A stretch of 48,833 bases of DNA from a virus (IMGVR_UViG_3300049298_000007:1-48833), one strand, 5' to 3'; counted from the stretch's first letter, positions 4,118 through 48,173 are shown. Numbers and translations are program-made. Notes: generated by a model from the sequence alone, not told the origin.

Positions 4118-4392
4118 TCGGGCACCTCGATCTCGTCCGTGGCGACGCCGCCGATCTCGCGATACTCGGGTTCGCGGTTCTTCATCTGTTCGGCCGTCCT
4201 GACGATCTTCACGATCGCCCTCGTGTAGTCGGCTCCGTCGACGCGGCAATGGTGCAGCGACTCCAGCCAGCCGGTGACCGGCCCCGACGCCTTGGGTACG
4301 CCGTGGGTGCGCTGCGCGGGCATGCCGGTGACCCGCTGGCCCAGGTAGGAGGCGTCGAGCTTGCCCAGGGCAATGATCCGAGTCCCCTTCAT
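4114..4392 (-). CDS. Hypothetical protein
   Basis: ATGA-coupled on both sides. Confidence 0.55.
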   Translation of the reverse strand: MKGTRIIALGKLDASYLGQRVTGMPAQRTHGVPKASGPVTGWLESLHHCRVDGADYTRAIVKIVRTAEQMKNREPEYREIGGVATDEIEVPE

Positions 4393-5159
4393 GCGATGGC
4401 CCCTTGCGGCTTGGTGGAGCGGCCGTAGGAGCGGTGGACGGGCACGCAGGCTTCGCCGCCGTCGTCCAGCAGGTTCGCGAGCTGGCCGACCTCGATCCAG
4501 GCTTGCCCGTTCTGCCCCCAGTCGGGACCCCAGGAGTTGGTGAGCTGGATCATGGGGCGTGCCGGACGGCCGGACGACGGATGCACCAGCTTGGCGGGGT
4601 GGTAGCCGGAGGCAACGATGCAGTGGCCGCCGACAACCGGCCCGGTCGGCATGACCTCCCCGTACATGTCGGGCCAGTACATGCCCTCCAGCCAGTTGAT
4701 GCCCAGGACAACGGGCCCGTGCAGGATCAGCGTGTCGACCACGTCAGTGATGCCGAAGCACCAGCGGTACTCGCGCAGATACCCGAGCCTGGACATGACC
4801 TTTGCACCGGCCAGCACCGATGTGCCCTCGTACTCCTCGCCGGGCCACTCGTCCTCGCGGCGCGCATCGTGGTAGATGGCGGCGGCCACACTGTTGCCTC
4901 CGCCCCCTATCCATAGCCGGTTCGCCATGTCGGCCACCGACACCCGCACTGGCGACATGAGGGCTTCCTGTGTCCAGCCGAACCCGACGCAGGCACCCTC
5001 ACTTCCCTGGTCGAGCACCGGGCCCGGCTGCCATTCGGCCCGGGTGCGGTACACCGTGACGCCGGGCGGCATGAGTGCCCGGATCGGGTAGTTGCGTGAC
5101 TTCGGGTCGTGGCGTGGCCGCCAGTCGAAAGTCCGCTCCTGGAACTGTGTGACCGTCAC
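4389..5159 (-). CDS. Papain-like cysteine peptidase (family C1)
   Basis: DQGSEGAC (Gln, Cys), GGHCI (His), NSWG..WG.NG (Asn). Confidence 0.88.
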   Translation of the reverse strand: MTVTQFQERTFDWRPRHDPKSRNYPIRALMPPGVTVYRTRAEWQPGPVLDQGSEGACVGFGWTQEALMSPVRVSVADMANRLWIGGGGNSVAAAIYHDARREDEWPGEEYEGTSVLAGAKVMSRLGYLREYRWCFGITDVVDTLILHGPVVLGINWLEGMYWPDMYGEVMPTGPVVGGHCIVASGYHPAKLVHPSSGRPARPMIQLTNSWGPDWGQNGQAWIEVGQLANLLDDGGEACVPVHRSYGRSTKPQGAIA

Positions 5160-5419
5160 TTGCCCTCGGCCCCTTTCTGTCCGCCATGGACCTTGCCCGC
5201 AGCCTGCAACGTGAACGAACGGCCATCCGGCGTGAATCCGCTCATGGCCACCTCCTCCATGTCTCCGATCTGGCGCAGCTTGGCCAGCCGGTCACCCAGG
5301 AACAGCACCATGACCCCACCATCGCCCTTCAGGTTCTCGATCATCCCCAGCTCGCCGGTGTACGTGTCGACCACGGGCACCTTGTTGTCGCGGGCAACTT
5401 CTGCCTCGTCCTTGTTCAC
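5156..5419 (-). CDS. Hypothetical protein
   Basis: GTGA-coupled ORF. Confidence 0.55.
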   Translation of the reverse strand: MNKDEAEVARDNKVPVVDTYTGELGMIENLKGDGGVMVLFLGDRLAKLRQIGDMEEVAMSGFTPDGRSFTLQAAGKVHGGQKGAEGK

Positions 5420-5610
5420 GCCGATACCTCGATCTCTTCCAGTGGAACGGAGTTTCCGGTCTGTTCGTACAGCTCGCGCACACGGACGATCGCGAACCGG
5501 TCATGCTTCAGCAGGCGGCGGCGGACCTCGATGCGCAGCCCGAACCAGCAGCCACGGCACAGGTACTGGTCTTTACCTTTGGCCCCGCCACAGTTGGGGC
5601 AGCTGCTCAT
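5416..5610 (-). CDS. Small zinc-finger protein
   Basis: CPNC...CRGCW. Confidence 0.6.
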   Translation of the reverse strand: MSSCPNCGGAKGKDQYLCRGCWFGLRIEVRRRLLKHDRFAIVRVRELYEQTGNSVPLEEIEVSA

Positions 5611-5620
5611 TGCTGTTGCC

Positions 5621-6499
5621 TCAGGCATCGACGGCCGTCCTCGGGTAGCGCTCGTTGACCTTCGCGATACCGGTGAGCCGTTCGATCTCGGCGTCCGGCA
5701 GGCCCCGTTCGCGCAGGATGCGGACGACTTCGCCGCGTTCGGCCTTGGTCGGTACCGCGTCGCCCTTGCGCCCGGCAACCATCCGTTCGACCACCACGGG
5801 ATCGATGCTGCCGCGTGGCCTGTCGTGGCGGGCTGTGCGCATCCCGGTGGGCCGTTCGGTCAGGTCCTCGATGTTCTCCCAGGCCATGGGCGACGGCCAC
5901 CCGTTGCGGGCGGCACGGTTGCGGGTGCAGTTGTGGGCCCTGCCGCCGGGGGCCGGGGTCATGGCCAGCCGGTCGTAGGCGTTGTTGATCTCGGCAACGA
6001 TCCACACCTCGACACGCTGGAAACGGTCGCGACGGATATCGTTCAGGCGGCCGGGCAGGATGACCGGCCCGCCGTGGGCTTTGATGTTGTCGGCAATGTC
6101 CGGGCAGCTCCACCCGATTCTGGCCAGGGCGCGCAGCTTCCGGGCGGGGATGGCAGCGCCGATACAGCCGTCGGTCGGCGTGCCCGCAGTCACCAGGGCG
6201 TAGCAGGAACGCGGCCCAAGTTGCAGTGTCTCCCCGCGCCGACGCCGCTCCAGCCAGTTGTAGCCGGTCGTCAGCTGGATGTTGCAGGCCGACGCGATCG
6301 CCCGGCCGTCGTAGCCCAGGGCGATCAGCGCGTCGAGCGCGGCCATGCCCTGTTCCACCGTGACCCGGGTGTAACGGCCGGACTCGCGCAGCTTGCGCAT
6401 CATGAACACTTGCCGTCGGCAACGGTCACAGCGGCAGGCTCGCGGCCACGCCGATTTCGTCCGGCTCCGGCATTGCGTCTCAGGTGTAATCGCTACCAC
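5621..6499 (-). CDS. Zn-finger plus multiple-HTH DNA-binding protein
   Basis: CRCDRCR; three HTH-like segments (GYDGRAIA, GWSCPDIA, GLPDAEIERLTG); SD GGAGG. Confidence 0.7.
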   Translation of the reverse strand: MVAITPETQCRSRTKSAWPRACRCDRCRRQVFMMRKLRESGRYTRVTVEQGMAALDALIALGYDGRAIASACNIQLTTGYNWLERRRRGETLQLGPRSCYALVTAGTPTDGCIGAAIPARKLRALARIGWSCPDIADNIKAHGGPVILPGRLNDIRRDRFQRVEVWIVAEINNAYDRLAMTPAPGGRAHNCTRNRAARNGWPSPMAWENIEDLTERPTGMRTARHDRPRGSIDPVVVERMVAGRKGDAVPTKAERGEVVRILRERGLPDAEIERLTGIAKVNERYPRTAVDA

Positions 6500-6659
6500 G
6501 GCGATCACCTCCGTGTGTCTGCTCCTCCCGGAGCTGGTTGTCTTCACAGGTCCCGCACTCGCACTCGGTGGGGCTGCCGTCAGCCTCTACCTCGCCGTTG
6601 CGGGCCAGGCAATAGCGGTGATTGCCTTTGTCACAGGGGACGCACACGCGGGCGGCCAT
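6480..6659 (-). CDS. Small Cys-rich protein (59 aa, below the ORF-track cutoff)
   Basis: MAARVCVPCDKGNHRYC...CECGTC; fills the gap between neighbours. Confidence 0.5.
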   Translation of the reverse strand: MAARVCVPCDKGNHRYCLARNGEVEADGSPTECECGTCEDNQLREEQTHGGDRRGSDYT

Positions 6660-7021
6660 CAGCGGCCCGGCGTGATCGTCTTGCGGGGCGTCTTGAGCGC
6701 CTGCCAGTCGCGCTGCATCTTGGCTACGGCGACCTGTGCCGGTAGCCCGTCAGGGTCGGTCGGTACGCCGTTGATCAGGTAACAGCCGACAGCCAGGCCG
6801 ACCCGTACGCGGTACGGCCCCTCCTGGATCAGCGCTTGAACGGTGCCGTTGGCAATCAGCTCGGTCATACCGTCGTCAACCTCACGACTGACCACCGTGA
6901 AGTACTCGCCCATCGTGTTCGGTCCCAGATACTTGCCGACGGGCGGCCCCTGGTGCGGGTAGTTCATGTAACTGCTTGCCGGGGGCAACTTGGCCACGTC
7001 GATAGGTGCTTGTGTGCTCAT
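6659..7021 (-). CDS. Hypothetical protein
   Basis: Coupled ORF in operon. Confidence 0.55.
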   Translation of the reverse strand: MSTQAPIDVAKLPPASSYMNYPHQGPPVGKYLGPNTMGEYFTVVSREVDDGMTELIANGTVQALIQEGPYRVRVGLAVGCYLINGVPTDPDGLPAQVAVAKMQRDWQALKTPRKTITPGR

Positions 7022-7269
7022 TTCGCTTCCTGTTCTTTCCGCTGCCTGTAGCGCCGCTGGTATCGATTCCTGGACCGCTTGTCACAGGTGATACAGCGCC
7101 GCTTTCCTTGCCCGTCGGTCCGGATGTTGTCCGGGGTCATCTCGTGTTCGCCGTTGCCACACAGGACCGGTTCGTCGGCCAGGGCCCGCGCCCTCCAGAA
7201 CTCCGTGTTGGCCTGAGCGTTGTCATGCTCGTACGCCGCCCAGGCCACACGGAGCGCCGCCACGTTCAT
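7018..7269 (-). CDS. Small zinc-binding protein (HNH-associated C..GH...R.C..C module)
   Basis: CGNGEHEMTPDN...RRCITC. Confidence 0.6.
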   Translation of the reverse strand: MNVAALRVAWAAYEHDNAQANTEFWRARALADEPVLCGNGEHEMTPDNIRTDGQGKRRCITCDKRSRNRYQRRYRQRKEQEAK

Positions 7270-7634
7270 CAGTCAGGGCTGAACGGGGTCTTGGTCGGCT
7301 TGACCTGCCACAGGACATGCCGCCAGCCGGACACCCGCACCGGCTTCACGGTCTGCCGGTGGCCGTGCCGGGCCGCCAGCCTGGTGGCCACCGTGTGCGC
7401 GTCGGACAGGTGATGCCACAGCACCCGGCCCCGGTAGCTGACGGTCGGCGCGTAGGTGACCGGCTGGCCCGAGACCACGCCCGGGATCTGGCTCAGCCCG
7501 TACAGATGCGCCGATTCGGCTTGCATCCGGGGCGGCTCCACGCCGGTGGCGGCGATCTCCCGGTTGAGCCGTTCGGCCGTGTCTCTGAACGGCCCTGTGC
7601 GCCGTTCTGACGGCCTGAGGGTGTCGTCAGGCAT
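7269..7634 (-). CDS. Hypothetical protein
   Basis: Packed ORF. Confidence 0.5.
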   Translation of the reverse strand: MPDDTLRPSERRTGPFRDTAERLNREIAATGVEPPRMQAESAHLYGLSQIPGVVSGQPVTYAPTVSYRGRVLWHHLSDAHTVATRLAARHGHRQTVKPVRVSGWRHVLWQVKPTKTPFSPD

Positions 7635-8058
7635 GATCACCCGCCTGTGTGTCTCGCGGGCGGACGTAGGGCACGTTCCGTCCTGGTGGGGTGGGCCACA
7701 CGAACCGGCCCGGCGTGACCCGGCCGAACATGTCGGTTTCCGGCGGAATCCACTGCCGGGTATGGCGCGACCGGCCGTAGCGCGGGTTGTGCCGCCGCTC
7801 CTGCCGGGTCGGCCCGGCGTTCTTCGGCTGCCGGTACACCCACTCACGCTGTTTCGCCTGAGCCTGCCCAGAGATCCGGCGCATGGTGACCGTGACCCCG
7901 GACCCGCCGCCGGTCTCGCCGGTGAGGAGGTCGGCTTTGGCCTGCCGCTTGGCGGCTTCCTTCGCCAGCTCGCGCCGGTCGTTCAGCCACGCCCGCAGCG
8001 ATTCGCCCCGCGCCGCCCGTTCCCGGCGCTTGATCTTCTCCTGCCGTACCCGGGTCAC
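7627..8058 (-). CDS. Basic hypothetical protein
   Basis: Arg/Lys-rich coupled ORF. Confidence 0.5.
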   Translation of the reverse strand: MTRVRQEKIKRRERAARGESLRAWLNDRRELAKEAAKRQAKADLLTGETGGGSGVTVTMRRISGQAQAKQREWVYRQPKNAGPTRQERRHNPRYGRSRHTRQWIPPETDMFGRVTPGRFVWPTPPGRNVPYVRPRDTQAGDHA

Positions 8059-8480
8059 GACCGGCCCCCTGACCCGCCGGTGGCGCTGCCACCGTCACCG
8101 ACGATCGTTGCCGACCCGCCGTTGCCGCCACGGCCGACCCGCCCGCCCGGAGCGAACGTGACCGACCCCGGCTCGCCCGGGTAGGCCGCCGTACCGGCAC
8201 CGCCGCCCTTCAGCATGACCGCCAGGCCCCGGCCGGATTCGTTGCCCAGGACAAGCATTCCCAGGACGTGCTGTGCCCAGCCCAGGAGCGCCCACCACAG
8301 CAGCGCCGACACGACCGCCGCCAGGGCCACGCCCCACAGGGTGTAGGTCGGCCAGTCGGTCGCCGTCCAGACGAGCTGCCCGGCCAGCAGGCCACCGAAC
8401 AGCGACCATGCCACGAACATCCACTTCAGCAGGGACAGGACGAACACGACCCGTCCCGCGCCCTTCACACTGTTGTTCAC
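8055..8480 (-). CDS. Membrane protein with Gly-rich tail
   Basis: Two long hydrophobic segments; GTGA overlap with recT stop. Confidence 0.6.
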   Translation of the reverse strand: MNNSVKGAGRVVFVLSLLKWMFVAWSLFGGLLAGQLVWTATDWPTYTLWGVALAAVVSALLWWALLGWAQHVLGMLVLGNESGRGLAVMLKGGGAGTAAYPGEPGSVTFAPGGRVGRGGNGGSATIVGDGGSATGGSGGRS

Positions 8481-9319
8481 TTCTGCTCCTCGTTGCTCTC
8501 GGCATCGTTCGGGATCTGCTCGGCGTGCCAGGTGGTTGCCTCCGGCGGACCGGTGAGGTCGGCGCGGAATCCGTTGTCGACCTGGAGGGCGGTGGCCAGG
8601 TCGGCGGATTTCGGCATCCACTTGGACAGTTGCCTCAGGCATGTTTTGTGTGCCATGCCCTCGAACTCCGACACCCACGGGCCCACGATCTTGCCCTCGC
8701 GTGTCTTGGCCATCGCGTACTTGTCGCGGTGGGCTTCCATGTCCTCATGGGACTTCAGGTAGAACATGGGCCGCCCGCCCTTGATGTGCACCACGGCGTA
8801 GTAGGCCAGTGCCTTGCCCCGGTCACCGATGATCAGCGGCTCATGGAACAGCTCGTCTTGGGTGCCGTAGGCAACCGAGAACACCCGGTCATTCGCGTGG
8901 ACGGTGCGCGCCGCGATGGCGGCGACCTGCTGGCTTCGGTACCCCAGCTCCACGTAGCCCTGATACCCGATCACCAGCTGGGCTTTGAACCCCTTGGACT
9001 GGTTGTCCCAGAAGGGCAGCAACCAGCCGTGCCCAAGCACGCCGGGCCGTAAACCGAGCTGGCCCATCGTCATCAGGCCGCCCAGCAGTGTCGACGGGTC
9101 GCACAGCGCCAGCTTCGGGGTCTGCCGGACCAGGGTCATGGCGTCGCGTACCAGCTGGCTCGCCTCCGCGCCCTTGGGCATCGCAAGCTTGAACTGGTCC
9201 TCCATCTTGCGGATGTTCGCTGAAGCGCGCTGGATCGCCTCGTCCTGTTCCTTCTGCTTCTCCACCTCGGTGCCCGGCTGGTTGTTGCCTGCGGCCCGGT
9301 TCCGTAGCTCGCTCATCAT
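8477..9319 (-). CDS. recT: RecT-family single-strand annealing protein
   Basis: QLGLRPG.LG..WLLPF, AQLVIGYQGY, MAHKT..R.L.KW.P.S. Confidence 0.93.
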   Translation of the reverse strand: MMSELRNRAAGNNQPGTEVEKQKEQDEAIQRASANIRKMEDQFKLAMPKGAEASQLVRDAMTLVRQTPKLALCDPSTLLGGLMTMGQLGLRPGVLGHGWLLPFWDNQSKGFKAQLVIGYQGYVELGYRSQQVAAIAARTVHANDRVFSVAYGTQDELFHEPLIIGDRGKALAYYAVVHIKGGRPMFYLKSHEDMEAHRDKYAMAKTREGKIVGPWVSEFEGMAHKTCLRQLSKWMPKSADLATALQVDNGFRADLTGPPEATTWHAEQIPNDAESNEEQK

Positions 9320-9627
9320 CACGCCTGCGGGTTGTCATCGACGGGACGCAGGGGCCGGGGTCGCCCCTCGGCAGCGCGCTCCTCCTGCTGCCCGTCGTCG
9401 GTTGCCTCGGGCAACGCGCCCTCGCCGGGGGTCTCCTCCAGGTCGAAGTACAAAACCAGCCGGTCAGTCGCCCGCTGGACCTTGATCTCGATCGCGGCGT
9501 CCAGGATCAGCTCCGCCAGTTCGGCGGTCGTACCGTCGGCCGGTGTGAACGAGTTGAGCAGGTCTTCCAGGTATCCGATGGCTTCGCGGCGGTCGCGGCG
9601 GGTGGGGAGTTTCTTCTGGTGGCTCAT
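9319..9627 (-). CDS. Hypothetical protein
   Basis: SD AGGAG; lies between yqaJ and recT. Confidence 0.6.
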   Translation of the reverse strand: MSHQKKLPTRRDRREAIGYLEDLLNSFTPADGTTAELAELILDAAIEIKVQRATDRLVLYFDLEETPGEGALPEATDDGQQEERAAEGRPRPLRPVDDNPQA

Positions 9628-9642
9628 GGTGGTGTGGTTCTC

Positions 9643-10650
9643 CTACTTCAGGTTAAAACGCGGGTTCGGGTCGTTCTTCGTGATGTAGCCCTCGGCAACC
9701 AGTTCGGCGTGCAGCTCCGGGCGTTCCTTCTCCAGGCGGGCGCGCTGTGCGGCCGTCATCTCGTACTTGGCGTCCGGCCGCTTGTAGGTGAACAACGGCT
9801 CGTCGTTCGGGCCGGTCGCCATCTCCGCGCCGCCCAGCATCTTGATCAGGTTGCCCTTGGCAACGTCGACTTCACGCTTGCCGTTCTTCATCAACCGGCC
9901 GCCTGCGCGGTAGCGGGTGATGTGCTCCTCGGCCTTGTCCAGCTCCGCGCCCTCCAGCCGCCGTGCGCCCTCGCGCTTGGCGAACATGGCGTTCAGTTCC
10001 CTGATCAGCACACCTTCTGCGTCAGCGGACACCGGCGGCGGGGTGTTGTTCTGCACCGACTCCCAGACCTCCAGGGCGGCGGCCATCAGGTAGTCCTCCA
10101 GCTGCTTGTCCCGGGCAACGGTGTACGAGACGAGCTTCTGGCCACCGAGGAGGCAGGCCACGTGCGCATGGGGCAGGCCCGACACCATCAGTTGCCACTG
10201 GACCTGTGCCAGCACGTCGTCCGGCACATCCTCGCGCCACTTACCGGCGACGTACGCAGACCGTGTCTTGACCTCCAGCCCACAGGGAAGAACCCGCAGG
10301 CTGCCGTCAGGGCATGAGTCCACGAGCCGATCCAGGCTGGCGACCATCCACGGGTTATGGCTGTTGGCAAGCACTCCGACGGGCCGGACTGTCGTGCCGT
10401 TCTGGCTGGCCCAGCGCTGCGCTACCGGCTCCTCAAGGATCGTGCCCCATTCGGCCGCTTCCCTGTTGGTGTCGTCGGCGGCGGACTCGTTGCGCTTGGA
10501 GCGCCACACCGTCAGCGCGTTGCCGTACTTGGACAGGCCCAGAATCATCGGCAGGTCCGTGGCGGTGATCGCGGTGCGGCGCACCTTGTACCAGTCATCG
10601 GTGTGCGGCTGGCCGTCGTACACGAGTACGCCAGTCGGGGTCGGGTTCAC
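9643..10650 (-). CDS. YqaJ-like (lambda-exonuclease family) recombination nuclease
   Basis: W...RR..I.ATD, WG..LE, ASLDR, LEVKT, Q.QWQ. Confidence 0.93.
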   Translation of the reverse strand: MNPTPTGVLVYDGQPHTDDWYKVRRTAITATDLPMILGLSKYGNALTVWRSKRNESAADDTNREAAEWGTILEEPVAQRWASQNGTTVRPVGVLANSHNPWMVASLDRLVDSCPDGSLRVLPCGLEVKTRSAYVAGKWREDVPDDVLAQVQWQLMVSGLPHAHVACLLGGQKLVSYTVARDKQLEDYLMAAALEVWESVQNNTPPPVSADAEGVLIRELNAMFAKREGARRLEGAELDKAEEHITRYRAGGRLMKNGKREVDVAKGNLIKMLGGAEMATGPNDEPLFTYKRPDAKYEMTAAQRARLEKERPELHAELVAEGYITKNDPNPRFNLK

Positions 10651-10862
10651 TTGTTGCCCTCCGCATCCTTTTTGGCTTTGTCGAGCTTGCGGCGACACGG
10701 GGTGCAGTCATCCGGCGACGGCTTGTCCACCGGATCAACGGGGCCGAAGTAGAACCCGACGCGACCGCACAGGCTCCACGCGCCCTTGTAGTAGTGGGCT
10801 ACCCGGTCGCCGGGCCGGACGACTCCCCAGCCCCTGTGTACCGGTGTCGTTGCCTCAGCCAT
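10647..10862 (-). CDS. Small zinc-finger protein
   Basis: AHYY...SLCG...CTPC. Confidence 0.6.
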   Translation of the reverse strand: MAEATTPVHRGWGVVRPGDRVAHYYKGAWSLCGRVGFYFGPVDPVDKPSPDDCTPCRRKLDKAKKDAEGNK

Positions 10863-11052
10863 CGGTCTTGGCCAGCGGGTTGACGGGCTTCAGACCGTCG
10901 GGCCAGTCTGTCCAGGGCGGGCCGGTCTGGAGGTCGGCCCGGCCGCCCTCGGTGCCCATGGCCAGCCGACGGCACGTGTTGGTGTGGGACAGGGAGTGAC
11001 AGTCGGGGCACTGCTCGGTCTCCCGCTGTACGTCTGTGAGTTTGTTTGCCAT
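10855..11052 (-). CDS. Small Cys/His protein
   Basis: CPDC...H..TC. Confidence 0.5.
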   Translation of the reverse strand: MANKLTDVQRETEQCPDCHSLSHTNTCRRLAMGTEGGRADLQTGPPWTDWPDGLKPVNPLAKTDG

Positions 11053-11135
11053 TACGCTGGTACCGTTCTCTCTCGCAGGGGATATGCCCCCGGCGGCGAT
11101 GGTTGCTGGTCCTCCCGTTGTTGCCGGGGGCACTC

Positions 11136-11330
11136 TTATGCCTCCTCCTCGGGCTGTGTCGACAGGCTCTGTGCGTACGCCTCCACATCGGCGACGGCCA
11201 GCCGGAACTGCCGCTTGCCGACGTAGCGTTTGGTCAGGATGCCAGCAGCTGCCAGCTCGTACACCTGCCGCTTGGACAGGGAGAGCCTGCGGGCCGCTTC
11301 CCCAACGGTCACCAGGATTGCGGTGTCCAT
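11136..11330 (-). CDS. xis: Excisionase-like HTH_17 DNA-binding protein
   Basis: LVTVGEAARRLSLSKRQVYEL...G.L; adjacent to integrase. Confidence 0.8.
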   Translation of the reverse strand: MDTAILVTVGEAARRLSLSKRQVYELAAAGILTKRYVGKRQFRLAVADVEAYAQSLSTQPEEEA

Positions 11331-11376
11331 GGCCGTCCTCCGTTCTTCTCTATGCCGCTCTGTGTTGCTCCGTGCT

Positions 11377-13635: not shown

Positions 13636-13643
13636 GGCAACCG

Positions 13644-38023: not shown

Positions 38024-38041
38024 TGTTGCCCCCGGCCCCTG

Positions 38042-38677: not shown

Positions 38678-38693
38678 CTATTGCCCCGGGCAA

Positions 38694-39845: not shown

Positions 39846-39862
39846 GACGCGTTCCTCTCGGG

Positions 39863-40312
39863 TCAGTACCCGTAGTCGGTCAGCGCGTTACCCGTGTAGC
39901 GCGGACCCCGGGCCGGGTCCGGGTAGCACAGCGGCTCAGGGAAGCAGCCTGCCGGTTCGCCCGGGTTGGGCGTGACCGTGTCCGGCTCCTGGTCCGCCAG
40001 CCATTCGGCCAGCTCGTTCTTCTCCTCCGGCGTCAGGTAGACGCCCAGACGTTCGGCCGCGTTGAACTTGTCGCGTACCGCGTCGACCTGTTTTTCCGTG
40101 ACGCCCTTGGGGTTGCGCAGCGCCCGACCGGCGGCGGCCAGGACGACACTGCGGGGCGTCGCGAACTCCACCGCCGGTGTCCACGGGGCATGGTCTCCGA
40201 CCTTCTGGATCACCTTGCCCTCGGCAAGCTCGATCAGAACGTTGCCCACGTCGTTCACAACGGGCATCTGAAGGGAGTTAGCCAGATCCGACAGACTCAC
40301 GATGGTGCCCAC
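39863..40312 (-). CDS. Head-to-tail adaptor
   Basis: V.L.A..RAL.NP.G, GVYLT.EE...L. Confidence 0.8.
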   Translation of the reverse strand: MGTIVSLSDLANSLQMPVVNDVGNVLIELAEGKVIQKVGDHAPWTPAVEFATPRSVVLAAAGRALRNPKGVTEKQVDAVRDKFNAAERLGVYLTPEEKNELAEWLADQEPDTVTPNPGEPAGCFPEPLCYPDPARGPRYTGNALTDYGY

Positions 40313-40331
40313 GGCAACTAACTCCCTTCAG

Positions 40332-40823
40332 TCACTTCGGTGTACCCCAGGTGGCGATCAGGTCAGCGCGACTGACCTTCTTCTCCTCGATCTCGGCCCG
40401 GTCGCCGCCCTTGGACACCGCGTAGTCGACCCAGTCGGCCCGGTCGGCGTTCTTGCGCGGCTCGGGAACGTCGTCACCGGCAACGACCTCGGCCTTGGTC
40501 GGCTCGGTCGTCACCGGCTGGCCGGACACCTTGTCCCCGTCGTCAGGCGTGGTGACCTGCGCGTTGGTGTTCGGCTCGCCCAGCCCGTCGGTGATCTCCG
40601 GCGGATTGGTCTGGCGCTCGTCCTCGTAATCGGTGATCGACCCGTCATCGTTCAGCGACACGGCCTTGATCTGGCCCGTGGACAGGTGGTGTTCGACCGC
40701 CCGGTCCTCCAGGTCTTCCGGCAACAGCGCATTCCGGTAGAACCCGAGCAACACCCGCTGCCCGGACGCCGGGTCCGCCGTGGTCATGGTGACGTATTCG
40801 CCCGTCACGACATACCGCTTCAT
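40332..40823 (-). CDS. Hypothetical protein after capsid gene, with small C-terminal helical domain
   Basis: PRKNADRADWVDYA motif. Confidence 0.7.
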   Translation of the reverse strand: MKRYVVTGEYVTMTTADPASGQRVLLGFYRNALLPEDLEDRAVEHHLSTGQIKAVSLNDDGSITDYEDERQTNPPEITDGLGEPNTNAQVTTPDDGDKVSGQPVTTEPTKAEVVAGDDVPEPRKNADRADWVDYAVSKGGDRAEIEEKKVSRADLIATWGTPK

Positions 40824-40833
40824 GGCAACTACC

Positions 40834-41763
40834 TCACAGACCGGTGTTGGTGAGACGGATGGCGGACCCCGGCTCCTGCACGACCGGCACCGTCAGGCGG
40901 CGGCCCTGGAGGTCGAAGCCGTCGCGGCCGTCGAGACGGATCGACTTGACCTCGATCGCCTGGTCCGACACGGCGTACCCGGGAGACACGTCGGTCTCGT
41001 CGGCCATGCCGCCCAGCTGGTTGTTGTCCAGAACGATCGGGTCCACGATCGACGGCGAAACCACGATGGTCAGACCGGCGACACGTTCGATCTCGCCCGT
41101 GTAGATGGGGTTCGTGGAGTCCTCCCGCTTGAGCGCGTTGGTGAACTTCTCGTCGCTCATGAGGTACGCGTACTGCACGTCGTTCAGCGCCAGCGTGTTG
41201 GGCATGTACCCCTGGTTCAGGCCGACGATCGCGGCCTTGGCCCGGAGAATGTCCCGCAGGAACAGGGCGTTCGCCAGGTTCCACGCGATGCCGCCGCCCG
41301 CCGTCACGCTGTAGGTCGCGGTGACCGCCGACGTGATGCCGGACATGGTGATGCCGTCGACCTGCTTGATGATGGAGTTGACGACCTTGCGGAGGTTGCG
41401 GTCAACGGCAGCGCCGCCGAACACGTTCCGCTTGATCTCCTCGTCCGCCATGAAGGTTTTCTGACCCCACTTGGCCACAGCCGCCATCGCCGCGACGGAC
41501 TGAGCCACCGACGCGTACGGGTACACCGCGCCCGGGTTGACCTTGTCGACCGTGCGATCGGTGACCTGAGACTCCGACTGCTCGTACACGATCGCGCCGC
41601 CCACGACACGGAACCGGCCGGTCAGCAGCTGGTCAGACACGAACCGCAGGTCGCGGAACGTGCGGAGACGCCGTGCGATGTTCGCCGGGTTCTGAAGGAA
41701 CCGGGAGACGGAAAGCACATCACCCGAGAGGGTGGGTGCAGCCGCCGGAAACGATCCAGGCAT
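40834..41763 (-). CDS. Major capsid protein
   Basis: V.PG..YP, KWG, EEI.RN, G..P.T, P.V..P motifs; position. Confidence 0.9.
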   Translation of the reverse strand: MPGSFPAAAPTLSGDVLSVSRFLQNPANIARRLRTFRDLRFVSDQLLTGRFRVVGGAIVYEQSESQVTDRTVDKVNPGAVYPYASVAQSVAAMAAVAKWGQKTFMADEEIKRNVFGGAAVDRNLRKVVNSIIKQVDGITMSGITSAVTATYSVTAGGGIAWNLANALFLRDILRAKAAIVGLNQGYMPNTLALNDVQYAYLMSDEKFTNALKREDSTNPIYTGEIERVAGLTIVVSPSIVDPIVLDNNQLGGMADETDVSPGYAVSDQAIEVKSIRLDGRDGFDLQGRRLTVPVVQEPGSAIRLTNTGL

Positions 41764-41789
41764 TTTAGTTGCCCCTTTCCCCTAGGTGA

Positions 41790-42170
41790 TCAGCGACCGG
41801 CCCAACGGACCTTGTTGCCCGCTGTGGCCGTGTTGATGGCGACGCCGATATCGGTACCGGCCGCCGCTGCGGTAGCCGCTGCTGTGGTGGCCACAGCGCC
41901 AGCGGCTGCCGCTGTGAGACGGTCACCGGCAGCCGAACCGGCCGTCGATACCGTCTCGTGGATGTTGCCCGGGATCGGGTGCACGGTGACCCCTGCGCCG
42001 ACCGCCGCATCGTGTGCGGCCACACCAACGACCTTGACGGAGTTCGCCCCGGCAGGGCCAACCGTGTTGACGCCGGTGGATTCCAGGATCTGGCCGCCGG
42101 TGACGGTGGCCGACGCGGTCACACCGGAGAACGGCGGCACGCCCTGGATGTACGGCAGGTAGTCAGCCAT
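41790..42170 (-). CDS. Head decoration / capsid cement (DUF2190-like)
   Basis: VGVA.HDA..G..V; small Ala/Gly-rich protein before capsid gene. Confidence 0.78.
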   Translation of the reverse strand: MADYLPYIQGVPPFSGVTASATVTGGQILESTGVNTVGPAGANSVKVVGVAAHDAAVGAGVTVHPIPGNIHETVSTAGSAAGDRLTAAAAGAVATTAAATAAAAGTDIGVAINTATAGNKVRWAGR

Positions 42171-43443
42171 TGAGACCACTCTCCTCGGGGTACAGGCGGG
42201 CGTAGTCGGCGTCGACTTCGCCGTATTCGCCGGTGCCGCCCTGGCCGATCGGGTTCACCGGCACGAGGTTGTCGGGGATGGCAGCGAGTGCGGCCTTGGC
42301 CCCCTCCGGGTCTGCCGTCCACATCGTGACCCACGCGTCGCGGCGGGCGTTCGGAATCTTGCCCTTGGCAACGGCCGCGTCAAGCGCGGCGTCGCGTTCC
42401 TTCTCCTCCATCTTGGCGATGACGGAGTCGCTGCGCCGGGCCGACGCCTGGAGCGCTTCCAGCGTGGACTTGTCCACCATCGCGAACCCGTCGGGGATCT
42501 TGACAGATGGGGTCTTGGCCCCCCCGTCCGGCTTGGGGTCGTCGTCCGGCTTGGTCTCGGTGTCGGAAACCTTGGCGTCCGCAGCGGCCTTGACCGCTGC
42601 GGCCTGAGCCGCCTTGATTGCCTCCGACAACTTCTCGTCCGTGTCGAGCTTGTCGACACCTTCGACGCCGAGATCGGTAGCCATCTGAACAAGGATCTTG
42701 TTCGGCATCTCCTCGTCCTCCTCGTTGTGCGAATCCGGCGGCCCGGCCGTCGGCTTGTACGGGTCAGGTGCCTTGTCCCTACCGGCATGCGCAAACACGG
42801 TCAGATCGAAGCGCTTGCACGCGGCAACAACATCCTGTTCCTTGCCCGACGCATCGAGCGTATCAGCCAGACCGGCGTCTACCGCCTCGGCGGCGGTGTA
42901 CCACGTCTCCTCAGCCATCGCCGCCCGCCATTCAGCGGGCGTGCCCCCGGCGCGGTCGGCGTAGATTTCGGCCATCTGCGCGTTGGTCTTCTCCAGCACC
43001 TGAGCCATCTTGAGCATGTCCGCCATGGGCCCGTACACCAGCCCGCTGCCCTCGTGGATCATCATTTGCGACCCGGCCTTGGCGACGATCTGGTCAGCGC
43101 CCATGGCAACGATCGTTGCCGCCGACGCCGCGAGCCCGTCGATCTGCGCCGTTACGGTCGCCTTGTGGTCGCGCAACATGTTCATGATGGCGATCCCCTC
43201 GGCAAAGTTGCCGCCGGGCGAGTTGAGATGCAGCTCGATCGTGTCCACGTCCAGCGACGCGACCTCTTCGGAGAACTTGCGGGCACCGGAGCCCCAGGGG
43301 GTGATCTCGTCCATGATCCACACCGTGGCGGACTTGGAACGCTTGCCCTTGGCATCGATCTTGTACCAGTCGGTCACTTCCACGCCGGTGGACGGCTGAT
43401 GCTCAAGCAACCAGTCGATCTCGGCCTGCTCGATCTTAGGCAT
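42163..43443 (-). CDS. ClpP-type head maturation protease with scaffold-like C-terminus
   Basis: LNSPGG, AASAAT, MMIH, ETW..A.EA...GLAD. Confidence 0.92.
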   Translation of the reverse strand: MPKIEQAEIDWLLEHQPSTGVEVTDWYKIDAKGKRSKSATVWIMDEITPWGSGARKFSEEVASLDVDTIELHLNSPGGNFAEGIAIMNMLRDHKATVTAQIDGLAASAATIVAMGADQIVAKAGSQMMIHEGSGLVYGPMADMLKMAQVLEKTNAQMAEIYADRAGGTPAEWRAAMAEETWYTAAEAVDAGLADTLDASGKEQDVVAACKRFDLTVFAHAGRDKAPDPYKPTAGPPDSHNEEDEEMPNKILVQMATDLGVEGVDKLDTDEKLSEAIKAAQAAAVKAAADAKVSDTETKPDDDPKPDGGAKTPSVKIPDGFAMVDKSTLEALQASARRSDSVIAKMEEKERDAALDAAVAKGKIPNARRDAWVTMWTADPEGAKAALAAIPDNLVPVNPIGQGGTGEYGEVDADYARLYPEESGLNG

Positions 43444-44734
43444 TAGCTACCGACCCCTTCCCCTGCTCGTTGTCCTCGGCATCCTCGTCCTCCTCCGGGT
43501 CGAACTGTGGCGGCACCGGCTCGTTGGGGTCCTCGGCGTTCGGGTCACGCGGCGGTAGCCCGTACTGCTGCCGCAACGAGGCTTCGAGTGTCGGGTCCAT
43601 GCGGAACGCGCCAGCCTCGATCAGCATCTTGAGTGCCTGCGCGGTCAGCTTCTGGCGTGACCCGATCTCGTCGCACACGATACGCGGTGCACCGGCGTCC
43701 ACGCCCCAGTTCTGGTCAACGAGGTCCTCCACGATGTGCTGTGTGGCCACATCGGCTACGTCGTCGGCGACGGTCTGGAGGCAGATCGTGAAGAAATCCT
43801 CGAACGTTGCCCCCAGCGCCCAACTGCCGGTCGCCGTACCCAAGTTCAGGAAGTGCGCCAGGACGGCGCGAGCGATCTGCTCATCGTGGTACCGGATCGA
43901 TGGCAGTGCCTGCGGGAGATCGCCCTCTACGCCCTTCAGATGCAGGTCCGCGCCGTTGTCGATGGCCGCCGCCGCCGTCTCACCGGCCCGGAACGACCGC
44001 GCCACAGCAAGCCCCTTGGTGAACCCCGGGTCCTGCTCCCCCTCGCCGGGGAACCCCTGGTAGACGGGCACGCCCATGCCGTTGCGGCGGATCGTCTGGG
44101 AGTCGACACGCAACAGCTCGTCCTTCAGCAGCCAGTTTTTGTAGCACGACCGCAGCAGCGACTGCCCGAGCCAGTTGCCGCCCTCACGTTCGTTGACATA
44201 GGCAACGAGCGCGTTGATGGGGATCAGCTTGTCGACGCCGTACTGCCGGATACCGTCGAGCCCGCCGTCCCGGGCAACCTTCAGCTCCGTCAGGGTGCGG
44301 GCCGGACGCCAGGCCAGTTTCTGAAGGTGGGTGCCGCCCGGCTTGATCGCGTCGATGCGGTACTGCTGCTCAAAGAAACTGTGGCCGTGGGCAAGCATCA
44401 GCAGCGCCAGCCGGAGATGTTCCTTCCACGAGAACCGGTCACGGGTGCGCCGCTTCGCCCGGTCGCCCTCCTCACCGATGATCGGCAGGTTCAGGTCGTC
44501 GGCCACGTGCTCAACGATCTCGTCCTCGGCCCCGTTCGGATCAATGCGCCACGCGGTACGGCGCACCGGCAGCGTCACGGCCCTCAGAACCGACTGCACC
44601 TGTGCGTCCTGGCGGCGCATCCGGTCATACACCTCGACCGACTTGGGCCACATCAGCTCGGGGGTCTCTTCGTACTCCAGCACCGACCAAAAGGCCGACA
44701 TGTAGCCGATTTCGTTGGTTGGGGCAACAGTCAC
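43436..44734 (-). CDS. Portal protein (Mu gp29/DUF935-like)
   Basis: YD.M...D.Q, G.S.FE, G.SLLR..Y..W..K, GS.ALG. Confidence 0.9.
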   Translation of the reverse strand: MTVAPTNEIGYMSAFWSVLEYEETPELMWPKSVEVYDRMRRQDAQVQSVLRAVTLPVRRTAWRIDPNGAEDEIVEHVADDLNLPIIGEEGDRAKRRTRDRFSWKEHLRLALLMLAHGHSFFEQQYRIDAIKPGGTHLQKLAWRPARTLTELKVARDGGLDGIRQYGVDKLIPINALVAYVNEREGGNWLGQSLLRSCYKNWLLKDELLRVDSQTIRRNGMGVPVYQGFPGEGEQDPGFTKGLAVARSFRAGETAAAAIDNGADLHLKGVEGDLPQALPSIRYHDEQIARAVLAHFLNLGTATGSWALGATFEDFFTICLQTVADDVADVATQHIVEDLVDQNWGVDAGAPRIVCDEIGSRQKLTAQALKMLIEAGAFRMDPTLEASLRQQYGLPPRDPNAEDPNEPVPPQFDPEEDEDAEDNEQGKGSVANA

Positions 44735-44745
44735 GGTCAGCCTCC

Positions 44746-46587
44746 TCAGAACCCGGCGGTTTCAATGCCGCTGTAGTCATCATCGCGCAGATTGCCGACG
44801 GTCAGCACCGCCGGTGTAGCGCCTTGCGGCTCCGGTGCCTTGACTGCCGCGTTGTCCATGAACTCCCCGTGGGCGTTGACGACGGCCGACCAGCCGTCGA
44901 TCTTCTCTGCACAGCTGGCCTTGTCAGGCTTCACATTACCCGCCGGGTCCATTGCGACCGCGAGGTTGTCGGTCATCCACACCATGACCGGGTTGCCGCC
45001 GTGGCGATAGTTGCCTTTGAGAACCAGTCTCAGCAGGTCCTTCAGGGGCGCGCTGGCCGACGCGTAGCCCTGCCCGCGTGGCACACAGAGCCCGTCGCCG
45101 TCCGGGCCGGGGAACTTGTCGTTCAGGTGGGTCACGAGCGTGGTGGCTCCCCAGCGGTCGTAGCCCAGCGACTGCACATCGAAGTTGTTAACATCGGCAA
45201 CGATCTGCTGCTCGATGAAATCCTGGTCGATCACGTTGCCGGGCGTCAGCGTGATCAGCCCTTGCTTGATCCAGTCCTCGGAGTTGCGGGCCGTCCGGTC
45301 GGACAGGTCCCGGGCCCTTGCCTCGGGCAACCAGAACCGCCACAGCGCGTCGAAGCTGCCGTCAGCGTTCGGGAACTCCCAGCACAGCGCCGTAATGTCC
45401 TCCACCGACGCCAGGTCGAGCCCGCCGTGACACTTCCGGCCCTTCAATTTGCCCTCTACAACCATCTGGATATTGCCTTGGGCGCTCCAGGCGTCCAGCG
45501 GGATGAACTGGGTGCGCTGCTTCGTCCGGATGCCCAGGTGCAGACGCAGATACGACGACAAGACCGCAGGCGACGACTTGGCGTTGTCGGCGGCCGATTC
45601 CAGGTACGGCCGGGTAGGCGAGATCCCGAAACCGGGGTTCGCCTTGCGCTGTGTAGCCTCCGAAAACGGGTCATCGCCCTTGTCGGCGCACCAAATCACC
45701 CCGTACGTGGTCGGAGACTTCAAGGTGCCCCGGGCAACCTTCTCGATCTTGTCCCGCTTCCGGTTGTAGATCGTGTTGGGCTTGCCGTCGTCGGCGGTCG
45801 TGATCATCACCAGCAGCGGCTGATCCCGCGACCCCATGCCGGTCTCGATGACCTCCACCAGATCCGGTTTCTTGTGGATATGCAGCTCATCGACGGCCCC
45901 CAGGTGGATATTCGCGCCGTGCTGGGCGTCCGCGACGTTCGCAATCGGCTTGAAATAGGAGCCTGTGCGCTGGTGAATGATGCTAGAGGCAAGCGGCTGG
46001 ACGTGGCCGCGCAGCGCCGGTGCCTTTTCGACCATCGCCTTGACCGGCGCGAACACGAACCCGGCTTGTTCTTTGCTCGTGGCCGCCGTCAGGCACTGAG
46101 CACCCGGCTCGCCGTCAGCGGCCAGCATGTAGACCGCGATACCGCCAATCAGGGTCGATTTGCCGTTCTTTCGCGGGATATCGACGTACAGCTCACGGAT
46201 GATCCGCACCCATTTGGCCGCATCCGGGTCGTACCGGGTCCAGCCGAACACCGGCGCGAGGATGTAGGCGACCTGCCACAGGTCCGGCACCAGCGGCCGA
46301 CCGGCCCACTTGCCCTGCGTGTGCTGCAACTTCGTGAACGCCCGGATGACCCGATCTACGCGCTCAACGTCGAAAGTTGCCCCCTTCAACGAGCTAGGTT
46401 CGGGGGTTTTGATCGCCGGAGGGGCCAGTTTCGCCAGCTCCGCACGGGTCACCTTGCGTGGCTTGCCGTCCTCACGCGGATACCCGTACTGGGTCAGGTA
46501 GCAGGCGACCTCCGGGCTGATGTTCAGCGCCCGGAGGTCAGTTGCCGACAGCCCCTTACGTGAACGGGTTGTCTTCGTCGCCGCCAT
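44746..46587 (-). CDS. terL: Terminase large subunit
   Basis: PRKNGKS (Walker A), VDELH, ITTA, GLDLAS, KIDG. Confidence 0.96.
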   Translation of the reverse strand: MAATKTTRSRKGLSATDLRALNISPEVACYLTQYGYPREDGKPRKVTRAELAKLAPPAIKTPEPSSLKGATFDVERVDRVIRAFTKLQHTQGKWAGRPLVPDLWQVAYILAPVFGWTRYDPDAAKWVRIIRELYVDIPRKNGKSTLIGGIAVYMLAADGEPGAQCLTAATSKEQAGFVFAPVKAMVEKAPALRGHVQPLASSIIHQRTGSYFKPIANVADAQHGANIHLGAVDELHIHKKPDLVEVIETGMGSRDQPLLVMITTADDGKPNTIYNRKRDKIEKVARGTLKSPTTYGVIWCADKGDDPFSEATQRKANPGFGISPTRPYLESAADNAKSSPAVLSSYLRLHLGIRTKQRTQFIPLDAWSAQGNIQMVVEGKLKGRKCHGGLDLASVEDITALCWEFPNADGSFDALWRFWLPEARARDLSDRTARNSEDWIKQGLITLTPGNVIDQDFIEQQIVADVNNFDVQSLGYDRWGATTLVTHLNDKFPGPDGDGLCVPRGQGYASASAPLKDLLRLVLKGNYRHGGNPVMVWMTDNLAVAMDPAGNVKPDKASCAEKIDGWSAVVNAHGEFMDNAAVKAPEPQGATPAVLTVGNLRDDDYSGIETAGF

Positions 46588-47068
46588 CGCCGCCGCCAGC
46601 CTTTCCCAGCGCCGTCTCCGACGACGGAGTAAGCCCGAACTGGGCCGCGAACCCGCGCAGTTCCTTGCCTGCGGCCCGTGCGACCGCGATGAACGGGTTC
46701 ACGATCTCGTTCGTGCGGGTCGTCCGGCCGTTCGGTCCGTGGCTGTACGTGGTGTGCTCGACGGTCTCGCCCTCGTCCTGGACGCGCCGCGTTGCCATCA
46801 CGAACGTTGCCCACGTCTCGCAATACGCGGCCAGGTTCGCCCGGTCCTCCGGCTTCAGAATGTCCAGCAGCTGCAACCCCGGCACAACCCGGTCCCATTC
46901 GGCCCGCGCCTCGTCCGAAAGCCACGCGGGCGCGTCAGGTGCACCGCGCCGGAACTCCGGCACATCCGGGATCTTCCGGCCGCCCGAGTCCACGCCCGGA
47001 CGGCGGCCCTTCATCTGCAACACCTTCGCCGGTTGGCTCCGGCGGCCACTGTTCGCGTTACCTGGCAT
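46556..47068 (-). CDS. terS: Terminase small subunit, P27 family
   Basis: P.WL...A..EW, D...L..YC, NP, FGLTPSS. Confidence 0.92.
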   Translation of the reverse strand: MPGNANSGRRSQPAKVLQMKGRRPGVDSGGRKIPDVPEFRRGAPDAPAWLSDEARAEWDRVVPGLQLLDILKPEDRANLAAYCETWATFVMATRRVQDEGETVEHTTYSHGPNGRTTRTNEIVNPFIAVARAAGKELRGFAAQFGLTPSSETALGKAGGGDGGDEDNPFT

Positions 47069-47240
47069 GCCCGCTGTCCCCTCTCCGGTGGTACCTGATG
47101 TTCGGGTTGTAGCGCCGCGTTGAGAGCTGGTCGGCCAGCTGCCGCACCTCACGCGCCGTCCGCGTAATCGGCCGGTAGTGCGGGCACTGACCGCAGTAGC
47201 ACGTCGCCAGGCAGTACCGGCCCGGTGCCAGCTCACCCAT
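47058..47240 (-). CDS. Small Cys-rich protein
   Basis: C...CYCGQCPH. Confidence 0.5.
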   Translation of the reverse strand: MGELAPGRYCLATCYCGQCPHYRPITRTAREVRQLADQLSTRRYNPNIRYHRRGDSGHAR

Positions 47241-47400
47241 CGCTCTCGCCCTCCAGCTTATCGTTGCTGTCGGCAAAGTGATTCGGGAACACGTACCGGC
47301 AGTCCTGGCACTGGATCTCATCCGGGCTGACCGCCACGAACAGCCGTACGTTCCCGCAGGACGGGCACACGATCACGCCGCCGTGTCCGTCACTCTTCAT
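47233..47400 (-). CDS. Small zinc-ribbon protein
   Basis: CPSC...CQDC. Confidence 0.55.
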   Translation of the reverse strand: MKSDGHGGVIVCPSCGNVRLFVAVSPDEIQCQDCRYVFPNHFADSNDKLEGESDG

Positions 47401-48173
47401 AGCCTCAGCGCCCAGCGGAGTCGCGCCCACGCCCTCACGTACCAGGGATACACCGGCGCTTTCGGTTCGTAGTCGCCATAGCCGGTGTTCTGCGCCGCCA
47501 CGTACGCCGCCTGGTCCATGTCCGTGCCGAACATCTCCCGCTGTAAGCCATACGACCCCGGCGACGACGCCCCCAGGTCGATTGCCTCCAGCAACTCCGG
47601 CGGCCAGTACGACGGCACCGGCTCACCCTCCGGCGCGGCCACATTCCCCGGCCACCGGTCCCGCGTCTCAGCCGGGCGGAAATGCTCCGACGGGCAAGGT
47701 GCCTTGCCCTCGTCAGCATGACCCGTGAAGTTGATCCGGGCCCCCTCCCGGTACGCCTGCCAGTCGCGGTGGCCGTCACAGAACCGGCACTCGCCCGGCG
47801 CATGCAGAACCGAGCTGTCACAGTGCGGGAACTGGACGACCTCCGACGGCTGGATCTTGAAGAACGGCTCATCCGGAGGAGGGGTCGTATCCGCCGTCAC
47901 CACGCCCTCACGAAGCGCCGACGGGATCTGACGCAGCCACGCGGGATCAGGGTCCGCCATCGTCCACACGGTGCCCGTGGCAACCTTCCGGGCCGCCAGA
48001 TACAGCCCCTCCTCCGGCGACACCGGAGCCGCGTTGATCACCTTCGCCATCGTCTCCGCCGCCTGCGCCGTCGACAGATCCGCGTACAACGCCAACTGCT
48101 GCGCCGTCGCCCAGAACTTCTCCCGCTGCGGAGGCAGCAGCAACTGAAGCAGCCGGTCAACTTCCTTGCCCAT
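47397..48173 (-). CDS. Hypothetical protein
   Basis: PHCD..VLHAPGEC..CD metal-binding motif. Confidence 0.65.
   Translation of the reverse strand: MGKEVDRLLQLLLPPQREKFWATAQQLALYADLSTAQAAETMAKVINAAPVSPEEGLYLAARKVATGTVWTMADPDPAWLRQIPSALREGVVTADTTPPPDEPFFKIQPSEVVQFPHCDSSVLHAPGECRFCDGHRDWQAYREGARINFTGHADEGKAPCPSEHFRPAETRDRWPGNVAAPEGEPVPSYWPPELLEAIDLGASSPGSYGLQREMFGTDMDQAAYVAAQNTGYGDYEPKAPVYPWYVRAWARLRWALRL

Follow-up and report, generated by a model that had tools for sequence, protein, structure and literature searches.

Lambdoid phages without RecBCD inhibitors over-represent Chi, an asymmetric octamer with a known enzyme that occurs about once per 5 kb on the host chromosome and whose phage densities match those of the host overall and rise about 3-fold locally (Bobay et al., 2013, PMC3784561). 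The highly iterated palindrome HIP1 of cyanobacteria is a contiguous, position-conserved 8-mer linked to orphan methyltransferases (PMC5861425, PMC4390886). The Cluster A stoperators of temperate actinophages such as L5 and Bxb1 are asymmetric, transcription-oriented, mainly intergenic and phage-specific sites that are bound by the phage repressor (PMC3029335). In Cluster O mycobacteriophages the palindromic repeat TGTTCGG-N3-CCGAACA, for which dimer binding has been proposed, has 34 near-invariant copies, many of them intergenic, and is described as absent from the host (PMC4351075). The operators of the ClgR family of XRE regulators, CGC-N5-GCG, serve small regulons at promoters (PMC3613350). 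The present analysis concerns the 48,833-bp virus record IMGVR_UViG_3300049298_000007 (i.e., the window, the whole stretch of DNA analysed), the genome of a tailed actinobacterial phage along which the palindrome TTGCC-N3-GGCAA is iterated about ten times more densely than in the chromosomes of the family Kribbellaceae.

A sequence-only reading of the window had listed 46 copies of TGCC-N3-GGCA and expected about 2. All 46 coordinates are exact TGCCNNNGGCA matches, and six further exact copies (4102, 8863, 14991, 16282, 25767, and 27857) bring the total to 52, compared to 2.19 +/- 1.44 (maximum 6) in 100 dinucleotide shuffles. Two of the comparisons which that reading had proposed leave the excess standing: spacers of 0-11 other than 3 give 0-5 copies each, and 300 within-gene synonymous shuffles give 10.2 +/- 2.2 copies (maximum 17). 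Under synonymous-codon shuffling, TGC-N5-GCA (108 observed vs. 27.5) and TTGC-N5-GCAA (49 vs. 6.9) are in excess as well. Because codon-preserving shuffles reach at most 17 copies while 52 are observed, the excess lies in the DNA itself and not in the coding. The codon contexts cited earlier are right (LALGI at 30658 and LAFGK at 34317), whereas the claim that many copies extend to GTTGCC-N3-GGCAAC was overstated, given that only 3 of the 52 do, exactly those that had been named. A more complete form of the unit is TTGCC-N3-GGCAA, which in many cases has an outer G/C as well; it is two-fold symmetric and of the kind read by a protein dimer, as had been suggested. Compared to expectations from a 4th-order Markov model, there are 19 perfect sites (0.4 expected), 80 one-mismatch sites (5.0) and 88 two-mismatch sites (43), with no enrichment of three-mismatch sites (195 vs. 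248). The sites, none of which is assigned a strand, are as follows.

957..48387, dispersed array of TTGCC-N3-GGCAA, 99 sites with 0-1 mismatch (19 perfect), 20.3 per 10 kb
Site starts, part 1: 957, 2360, 3828, 4020, 4101, 4361, 4603, 5385, 5616, 5766, 6410, 6843, 6976, 8242, 8630, 8862, 9402, 9686, 9851, 10106, 11121, 11516, 11786, 12474, 12800
Site starts, part 2: 13456, 13628, 14180, 14269, 14772, 14990, 15156, 15532, 16061, 16956, 17168, 17222, 17452, 18322, 18527, 18963, 20254, 22284, 22960, 23188, 23240, 23632, 24251, 24671, 24857
Site starts, part 3: 25766, 26639, 27124, 27619, 27691, 27712, 28865, 29310, 29397, 30063, 30657, 31381, 31413, 31686, 32417, 32708, 33481, 34000, 34316, 34684, 34992, 35401, 35524, 35787, 35970
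Site starts, part 4: 36247, 36436, 36496, 37728, 38461, 38681, 38954, 39217, 39488, 39772, 40215, 40305, 42359, 42618, 42815, 43343, 44193, 44382, 45318, 45725, 47264, 47582, 47971, 48375
4102..47982, 52 exact TGCC-N3-GGCA cores, as defined in the sequence-only reading
9401..9415, full 15-bp GTTGCC-N3-GGCAAC, first of three
9850..9864, full 15-bp GTTGCC-N3-GGCAAC, second of three, in a RecE-like gene
39487..39501, full 15-bp GTTGCC-N3-GGCAAC, third of three

The 99 sites bear out the genome-wide spread that had been claimed, with 6-11 sites in every 4 kb save the first (3 sites). Their spacing is more even than chance (gaps under 200 bp: 22 vs. 32.7, P = 0.004). Forty-six of the 52 cores lie wholly within curated genes, at reading-frame offsets of 33/10/3, and the other 6 are at gene boundaries or intergenic. 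The mismatched half of the one-mismatch sites is upstream in 35 cases and downstream in 45, and the array thus has no polarity. An attraction to start codons in the window is not clear (11 vs. 6.6, P = 0.07), and close pairs show no helical-phase preference beyond five pairs at 21-22 bp in phages. The spacer itself is a start codon (TTGCC-ATG/GTG-...) at 13628, 22284, and 40305, and like cases are seen in the motif-rich phage contig G003 (below).

Where synonymous codons permit a perfect site, 22 of 25 window slots are filled, as are 52 of 118 one-mismatch-compatible slots; the corresponding fractions are 29/66 and 71/1061 in host sequence and 13/86 and 12/1422 in other viral relatives. Since perfect-compatible slots number 6.6 per 10 kb in the window vs. 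0.7-1.3 in the comparison sets, the window proteins themselves appear to have been reshaped to fit the motif, which together with the codon shuffles agrees with the earlier proposal of selection on the DNA. Comparison with the syntenic relative G002 found 3 common sites, 38 found in the window only and 6 in G002 only; with L045 the counts were 5, 2, and 4 (L045 only). Site positions turn over, and it is apparently density that is retained.

The same motif marks a bacterial family. Among 50 genomes reached via capsid homologues, one Kribbellaceae genome had 249 perfect sites (control 3), while the other 49 had 0-24. Perfect TTGCC-N3-GGCAA was then found in 101 of 101 Kribbellaceae genomes, in 97-433 copies (22-50 per Mb; reversed-pattern controls, 0-9 copies), compared to 0-13 copies in all 173 other Propionibacteriales genomes of an order sample of 251. 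In a phylum sample the 15-mer occurred 0-6 times in 400 other Actinomycetota vs. 127 times in the Kribbellaceae genome G008. These background tallies include the unpublished genomes G031, G205, G758, G782, G830, G869, G914, and G981, and no claim is made on any of them alone. The half-sites rank alike in host and phage (TTGCC, then ATGCC, GTGCC, and TTGCT), and CTGCC accounts for 0 of 198 phage half-sites and 2 of 122 host half-sites. The densities of perfect and one-mismatch sites per Mb are 389 and 1638 in the window, 27 and 169 in the Kribbella sample, and 0.4 and 34 in non-Kribbella phage loci; sites with 0-1 mismatch number 1.96 per 10 kb over a 1.08-Mb sample of the host, to which some prophage regions were purposely added, vs. 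20.3 in the window.

Among the matches listed, host sites run evenly over 0-6.7 Mb of G070, whose sequence starts at dnaA, and over 0-4.5 Mb of G106, and no bias toward the replication origin or terminus was found in these parts of the two complete chromosomes. Nor do host sites favor non-coding DNA (22 of 120 vs. 26% expected with a crude gene caller) or track local GC. A search for tandem sites in 31 genomes returned 2-24 pairs each and no universal locus among those listed. In two Kribbellaceae genomes a tandem pair lies directly upstream of the same gene (L454:1501-1535 and L471:1501-1535), whose product we take to resemble a family 2A encapsulin shell.

Phages differ widely in motif content. 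Protein homology, without recourse to the motif, led to 175 viral loci, some of which overlap; 11 of them (from 9 contigs) are rich, with 3.6-16.7 sites per 10 kb; the remaining 164 hold 82 sites in 2.10 Mb vs. 51 for a 4-base spacer. A quick portal tree placed the rich rows in two groups, the second of which has motif-poor close kin, and required 3 changes for 7 rich rows vs. 6.8 in shuffles. Close relatives are not motif-rich. In the second portal group, the 45-kb G990 has 37 sites (controls, 3 and 2) that are evenly spaced (gaps under 200 bp: 1 vs. 5.5, P = 0.015), and it has only structural genes in common with the window. Three motif scans, each covering part of the viral contigs (121, 120, and 120 loci, 361 in all), found only G003 and G004 to be clearly rich high-GC contigs. 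G003 (26 kb) contains 32 sites (control 2) and open reading frames (ORFs) read as including serine integrase-like and CI-like genes, and has in common with the window a tape-measure segment and a 60-amino-acid ORF only; G004 is a 6.9-kb fragment with 6 sites. The sequences of G003 and G990 are each complete or nearly so. Even spacing is thus found in 2 of the 3 phage genomes tested, and the enrichment is independent of phage gene content, in that the rich phages share no candidate reader gene. In the sparse relative G002, 3 of the 19 sites lie no more than 200 bp from an end (P = 0.0006), and neither the window nor G990 has any site with 0-1 mismatch within 200 bp of the contig ends.

Prophages resident in Kribbella are mostly at or below the host level (11 sites in 42.7 kb in G127, 10 in 41 kb in G096, and 3 in 40 kb in G083), while the prophage regions of G061 and G118 have about 5 sites per 10 kb. 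The terminase type of the window is matched in 3 of 101 Kribbellaceae genomes (E <= 1e-10), and prophages of its terminase class look scarce in the family. Among GenBank phages, only distant matches in Gordonia, Arthrobacter, and Mycobacterium phages were found (terminase at most 56%, capsid 41%), and two other window proteins had no match there. Two low-GC phages (45-47%), G005 (L205) and G006 (L217), have 19 sites with 0-1 mismatch in 59 kb and 43 in 252 kb (controls, 0 and 3), which are partly clustered and possibly lie in repeated protein units. Other palindromes are also enriched in some of these loci: TGATCA, perhaps another host-linked palindrome, is strongly over-represented in the capsid relatives L035 and L036 (30 vs. 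5.3 in L036), and GCCA-N3-TGGC, with a GGC-N-GCC core, occurs 13-16 times vs. about 3 in L048, L058, L060, and L069.

All 84 curated genes of the window are on the minus strand and include those for terminase, portal, capsid, tail, lysins, a tyrosine integrase, an excisionase-like protein, and RecE/RecT. The absence of a CI-like gene, asserted earlier, holds in a scan of 87 window ORFs, none of which matched a CI-like family. The features that bear on the motif are these.

19153..19536, minus strand, helix-turn-helix (HTH) protein, phrog_686, tested as motif reader and unsupported
5621..6499, minus strand, HTH_23/phrog_1590 protein, tested as motif reader and unsupported
11136-11330, minus strand, excisionase-like HTH_17 gene, context
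11377-12633, minus strand, tyrosine integrase, context
8477..10650, minus strand, RecT and RecE/YqaJ recombination genes, context for Chi mimicry and gene conversion
22303..22845, minus strand, GH19 lysin, 51-60% identity to Kribbellaceae genes over most of its length
47058..47240, minus strand, small Cys-rich ORF (60 amino acids), the sole non-structural gene common to the window and G003

The integrase and excisionase-like genes (11136..12633) probably indicate a temperate lifestyle. The Cys-rich ORF at 47058..47240 has homologues in Kribbella prophage regions and no match in G002 or G990. The gene at 16091-17101 (minus strand) matches phrog_6247 ("DNA topoisomerase," E 8e-100) without a Pfam match; its product is possibly a Spo11/JetD-type Toprim protein. 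A GH12-like protein is encoded amid the head-tail genes (38694-39845, minus strand) and the GH19 lysin gene (22303-22845, minus strand) adjoins an amidase gene; phage G616 has both the GH12-like and GH19 types and no motif site. A small ORF at the genome end (54-320, minus strand) shows weak similarity to ROS/MucR zinc fingers (E 0.0014, which does not pass the cut-off) and has a G002 homologue. The window ends (1-70 and 48760-48833) match the places where G002 starts and ends, with similar terminal words. Because the two genomes begin and end at matching places, their sequences suggest that the window has defined ends and is complete, despite a completeness estimate of 59%. Scanning 17.6-22.4 kb for promoters and terminators found nothing exceeding chance.

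The HTH proteins put forward as readers in the sequence-only reading (19153, 5621, and 11136) have no homologues in the motif-rich G003 or G990. That at 19153 has a 35% homologue in G002, no match in five motif-bearing Kribbellaceae genomes in a search run without a positive control, and in the ESM Atlas only actinobacterial clusters without a name. For that at 5621, a homologue (34%) lies in a Kribbella prophage region of G083 that is poor in the motif, and prophage regions with homologues of 5621 are not consistently rich. Several host candidates were also rejected. Most Kribbellaceae have one ParB_N match, with an HTH region like that of sister families, and the five parS sites near oriC in Kribbella are canonical. 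Lsr2 does not discriminate, because 60 of 61 genomes in the order have it. The C5 methyltransferase PF00145 is absent from the richest genome, G106, the one genome without it of the five searched; PF01555 (N6/N4) is patchy (2/5), and the Dam-like PF02086 is in 3 of 15 Kribbellaceae. The canonical ClgR site CGCC-N3-AGCG is kept upstream of clpP1 in 3 of 3 Kribbella genomes. Also in 3 of 3 Kribbellaceae genomes, the space between a clpP paralogue and a divergent XRE gene of the ClgR/PopR-like type holds a conserved tandem dyad with ATCTGCC-N3-GGCAGAT at its end, which is likely the operator of that regulator.

L500:1413, L504:1414, and L505:1410, ATCTGCC-N3-GGCAGAT dyad

In thirty XRE loci of G070 and G106, the 190 bp next to the matched HTH start contained neither a site with 0-1 mismatch nor any conserved element. 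Because the motif dyad shares its geometry with ClgR-family operators, the likeness suggests, as a lead only, that the reader may be an XRE-type HTH dimer.

We consider it probable that TTGCC-N3-GGCAA is a site for a host protein and is selected for its density. The phage likely infects Kribbella, mainly because it shares the motif with Kribbellaceae. Sequence similarity of its GH19 lysin (51-60% identity in Kribbellaceae vs. at best E = 2e-12 in a class sample of 301 genomes) offers a weak independent clue. The top GTDB match of its capsid is from Kribbellaceae (62%; next 60%), on a 2.6-kb contig (L090) without any site with 0-1 mismatch, and the best DNA match of G003 is the Kribbellaceae genome G083. 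Homologues of the integrase and amidase are almost all unassigned metagenome proteins and give no host pointer. We propose that a putative dimeric Kribbella protein would bind the motif chromosome-wide, that some phage lineages may have been selected for a high density of sites, and that the protein might coat free phage DNA and mark it as "self" against degradation by the host. To this whole reading, i.e., a Kribbella dimer site, about 10x denser in the phage, whose coating protects it as self, we assign a probability of roughly 0.45. That the benefit would be protection, a Chi-like mimicry of the host, and not help with replication, packaging, or transcription is a guess. Shielding is favored because it is density and spacing that matter and not position, because integrated prophages sit near the host level, because the sparse G002 keeps sites at its ends, and because mimicry of a host motif is known for Chi; none of these grounds is decisive. 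In a wider form of the proposal, dimer-marked DNA would serve the whole family for self/non-self recognition without methylation, poorly marked DNA being destroyed or blocked, and several independent phage lineages would have rewritten codons and proteins to attain 4- to 10-fold host density and even spacing; we regard this wider form as doubtful.

A number of observations weigh against the shielding proposal. No reader protein or nuclease was found among the candidates tested, and Chi is asymmetric whereas TTGCC-N3-GGCAA is symmetric. The host assignment is largely circular: similar GH19 proteins (52-56%) are encoded by two phages poor in the motif, G616 and G617, and by 22 metagenome loci, most of which lack it, and GH19 was rejected as an independent host marker in that it did not predict motif richness; the non-family genome G192 also matches G003 DNA well; no CRISPR array surrounded 18 short matches; and tetranucleotide profiles do not favor Kribbella (r = 0.60 vs. 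0.56-0.70 for six other groups). The density of G003 and G004 reflects how they were chosen, both having been found through motif search, and the spacing of sites in G003 is not even (P = 0.47). Because resident prophages are mostly non-rich, not every Kribbella phage needs a high density, and the moderate counts of G005 and G006 lie beyond what the proposal accounts for. Host sites are slightly clustered, unlike the evenly spaced window, and were kept in 2 of 31 comparisons between species that drew on no more than 9 site entries, an apparently poor conservation that a neutral drive also predicts.

A host dimer could instead be recruited by the phage as a helper in compaction, localisation, replication, packaging, or transcription and not as a disguise. 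All of the evidence for sharing with the host fits this equally, the clusters at the ends of G002 are reminiscent of architectural sites close to packaging ends, the phi29 genome has five parS sites to which host Spo0J binds (PMC2731898), and a role in chromosome structure has been put forward for HIP1 (PMC5861425). Helper sites are usually few and fixed, however; host sites here show no origin or terminus bias among the matches listed and no intergenic bias with a crude gene caller, and seem to have poorly conserved positions; and the ends of the window and G990 lack sites with 0-1 mismatch; a helper role is on balance unlikely. The motif might also have little function, being created by a repair or gene-conversion bias of Kribbella, such as has been suggested for HIP1, and gathered in greater number by frequently recombining phages. 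That would suit the observations that sites are uniform and mostly coding, do not follow local GC, and seem to persist only briefly in host and phage alike, as well as a phage encoding RecE/RecT, and Elhai's model ties HIPs to methylation-dependent repair (PMC4390886). Yet the three methyltransferase families tested (PF00145, PF01555, and PF02086) include no conserved member, a drive would not lead one to expect the even spacing of the window and G990, and one-mismatch sites are enriched 16-fold, not depleted, which makes such a drive still harder to favor than a helper.

Binding by a phage-encoded repressor or other phage protein, of the stoperator or Cluster O type, draws on a geometry resembling the Cluster O 17-bp palindrome with its 34 copies (PMC4351075), on two HTH genes common to the window and G002, and on a short Cys-rich domain common to G003 and G990 (31% over 134 amino acids). 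The stoperator analogy of the sequence-only reading is nevertheless at odds with a motif found in 101 of 101 host-family genomes, only 3 of which have the window terminase type. The Cluster O motif is reported absent from its host (PMC4351075), stoperators are described as asymmetric, oriented, and mostly intergenic (PMC3029335), none of which applies to the window sites, and no HTH protein is common to the window, G003, and G990. Because the motif is a feature of the host family and the rich phages have no candidate DNA-binding gene in common, we consider a phage reader very improbable. As for a by-product of codon or amino-acid usage, 33 of 46 coding sites share one frame, but codon-preserving shuffles giving at most 17 copies vs. 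52 refute it and spacers of the same codon phase show no excess. Single-strand hairpins could form from the motif, with a stem of 5-6 bp and a loop of 3 nt. In 198 window half-sites, however, the outer T changes to A or G and never to C, i.e., the T-G wobble variant CTGCC/GGCAG is absent while true mismatches occur, and the pattern thus fits read-out by a protein better than a hairpin; the chance that codon usage or hairpins explain the array is negligible.

No published account of the motif was found under several spellings, in a search that had subscription journals, REBASE, and bioRxiv supplements outside its range; the word Kribbella is absent from the supplements of PMC4752239 and from the text and supplements of PMC5217627. 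TTGCC-N3-GGCAA is apparently a family-defining DNA motif of Kribbellaceae, undescribed so far, with about 300 perfect copies per typical genome. Phages of at least three lineages over-accumulate it, even with what appear to be altered protein sequences, a pattern that points to a conserved DNA-binding activity of the host, one of greater importance for free phage DNA than for the chromosome. Given an exact motif and the existence of Kribbella strains in culture, its reader should be directly retrievable. The role of highly iterated palindromes could thereby be tested in a second phylum, where phage fitness would offer a strong read-out, and the motif may serve as a marker for host prediction. 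If the self/non-self proposal is true, it would amount to a passport of the Chi kind that uses double-stranded palindromes, and Kribbella phages could be recognised in metagenomes by the motif alone.

Like the stoperators, the window sites are many 13-bp sites along the genome of a temperate actinophage (PMC3029335), but they form a perfect dyad without orientation, lie in genes in 46 of 52 cores, and are not phage-specific. Like the Cluster O repeat, they are dispersed palindromes with a 3-bp spacer (PMC4351075); unlike it, they comprise about 100 graded, mostly coding copies and are common to a host family and unrelated phages. The phi29 genome resembles the window in carrying sites for host proteins, i.e., parS for Spo0J and 0A boxes for Spo0A (PMC2731898). 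Because Kribbella ParB and parS look canonical, this is not a phi29-type parS system, and neither positional bias in the listed chromosome parts nor an altered or extra ParB, as in systems of the parS/Noc type, was found. ClgR-family operators share the dyad geometry GC(C/T)-N3-(G/A)GC (PMC3613350), but the paralogue dyad uses the outer C that is excluded from TTGCC-N3-GGCAA. The closest parallels are with HIP1 and Chi. HIP1 is likewise a lineage-wide over-represented palindrome inside genes, without a regulatory signature (PMC5861425, PMC4390886), from which the Kribbella motif differs as a 13-bp spaced dyad with apparently poor position conservation and no conserved methyltransferase in three families. 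With Chi it has in common that a motif of the host chromosome is over-represented by some phage lineages and not others, and that a self/non-self role has been proposed (PMC3784561); here the motif is over-represented in the inferred host and a subset of its phages, as a spaced palindrome instead of an asymmetric octamer, and in the window the excess over the host is 10-fold genome-wide. By analogy, TTGCC-N3-GGCAA would thus work most like Chi mimicry while looking most like a lineage palindrome of the HIP1 type.

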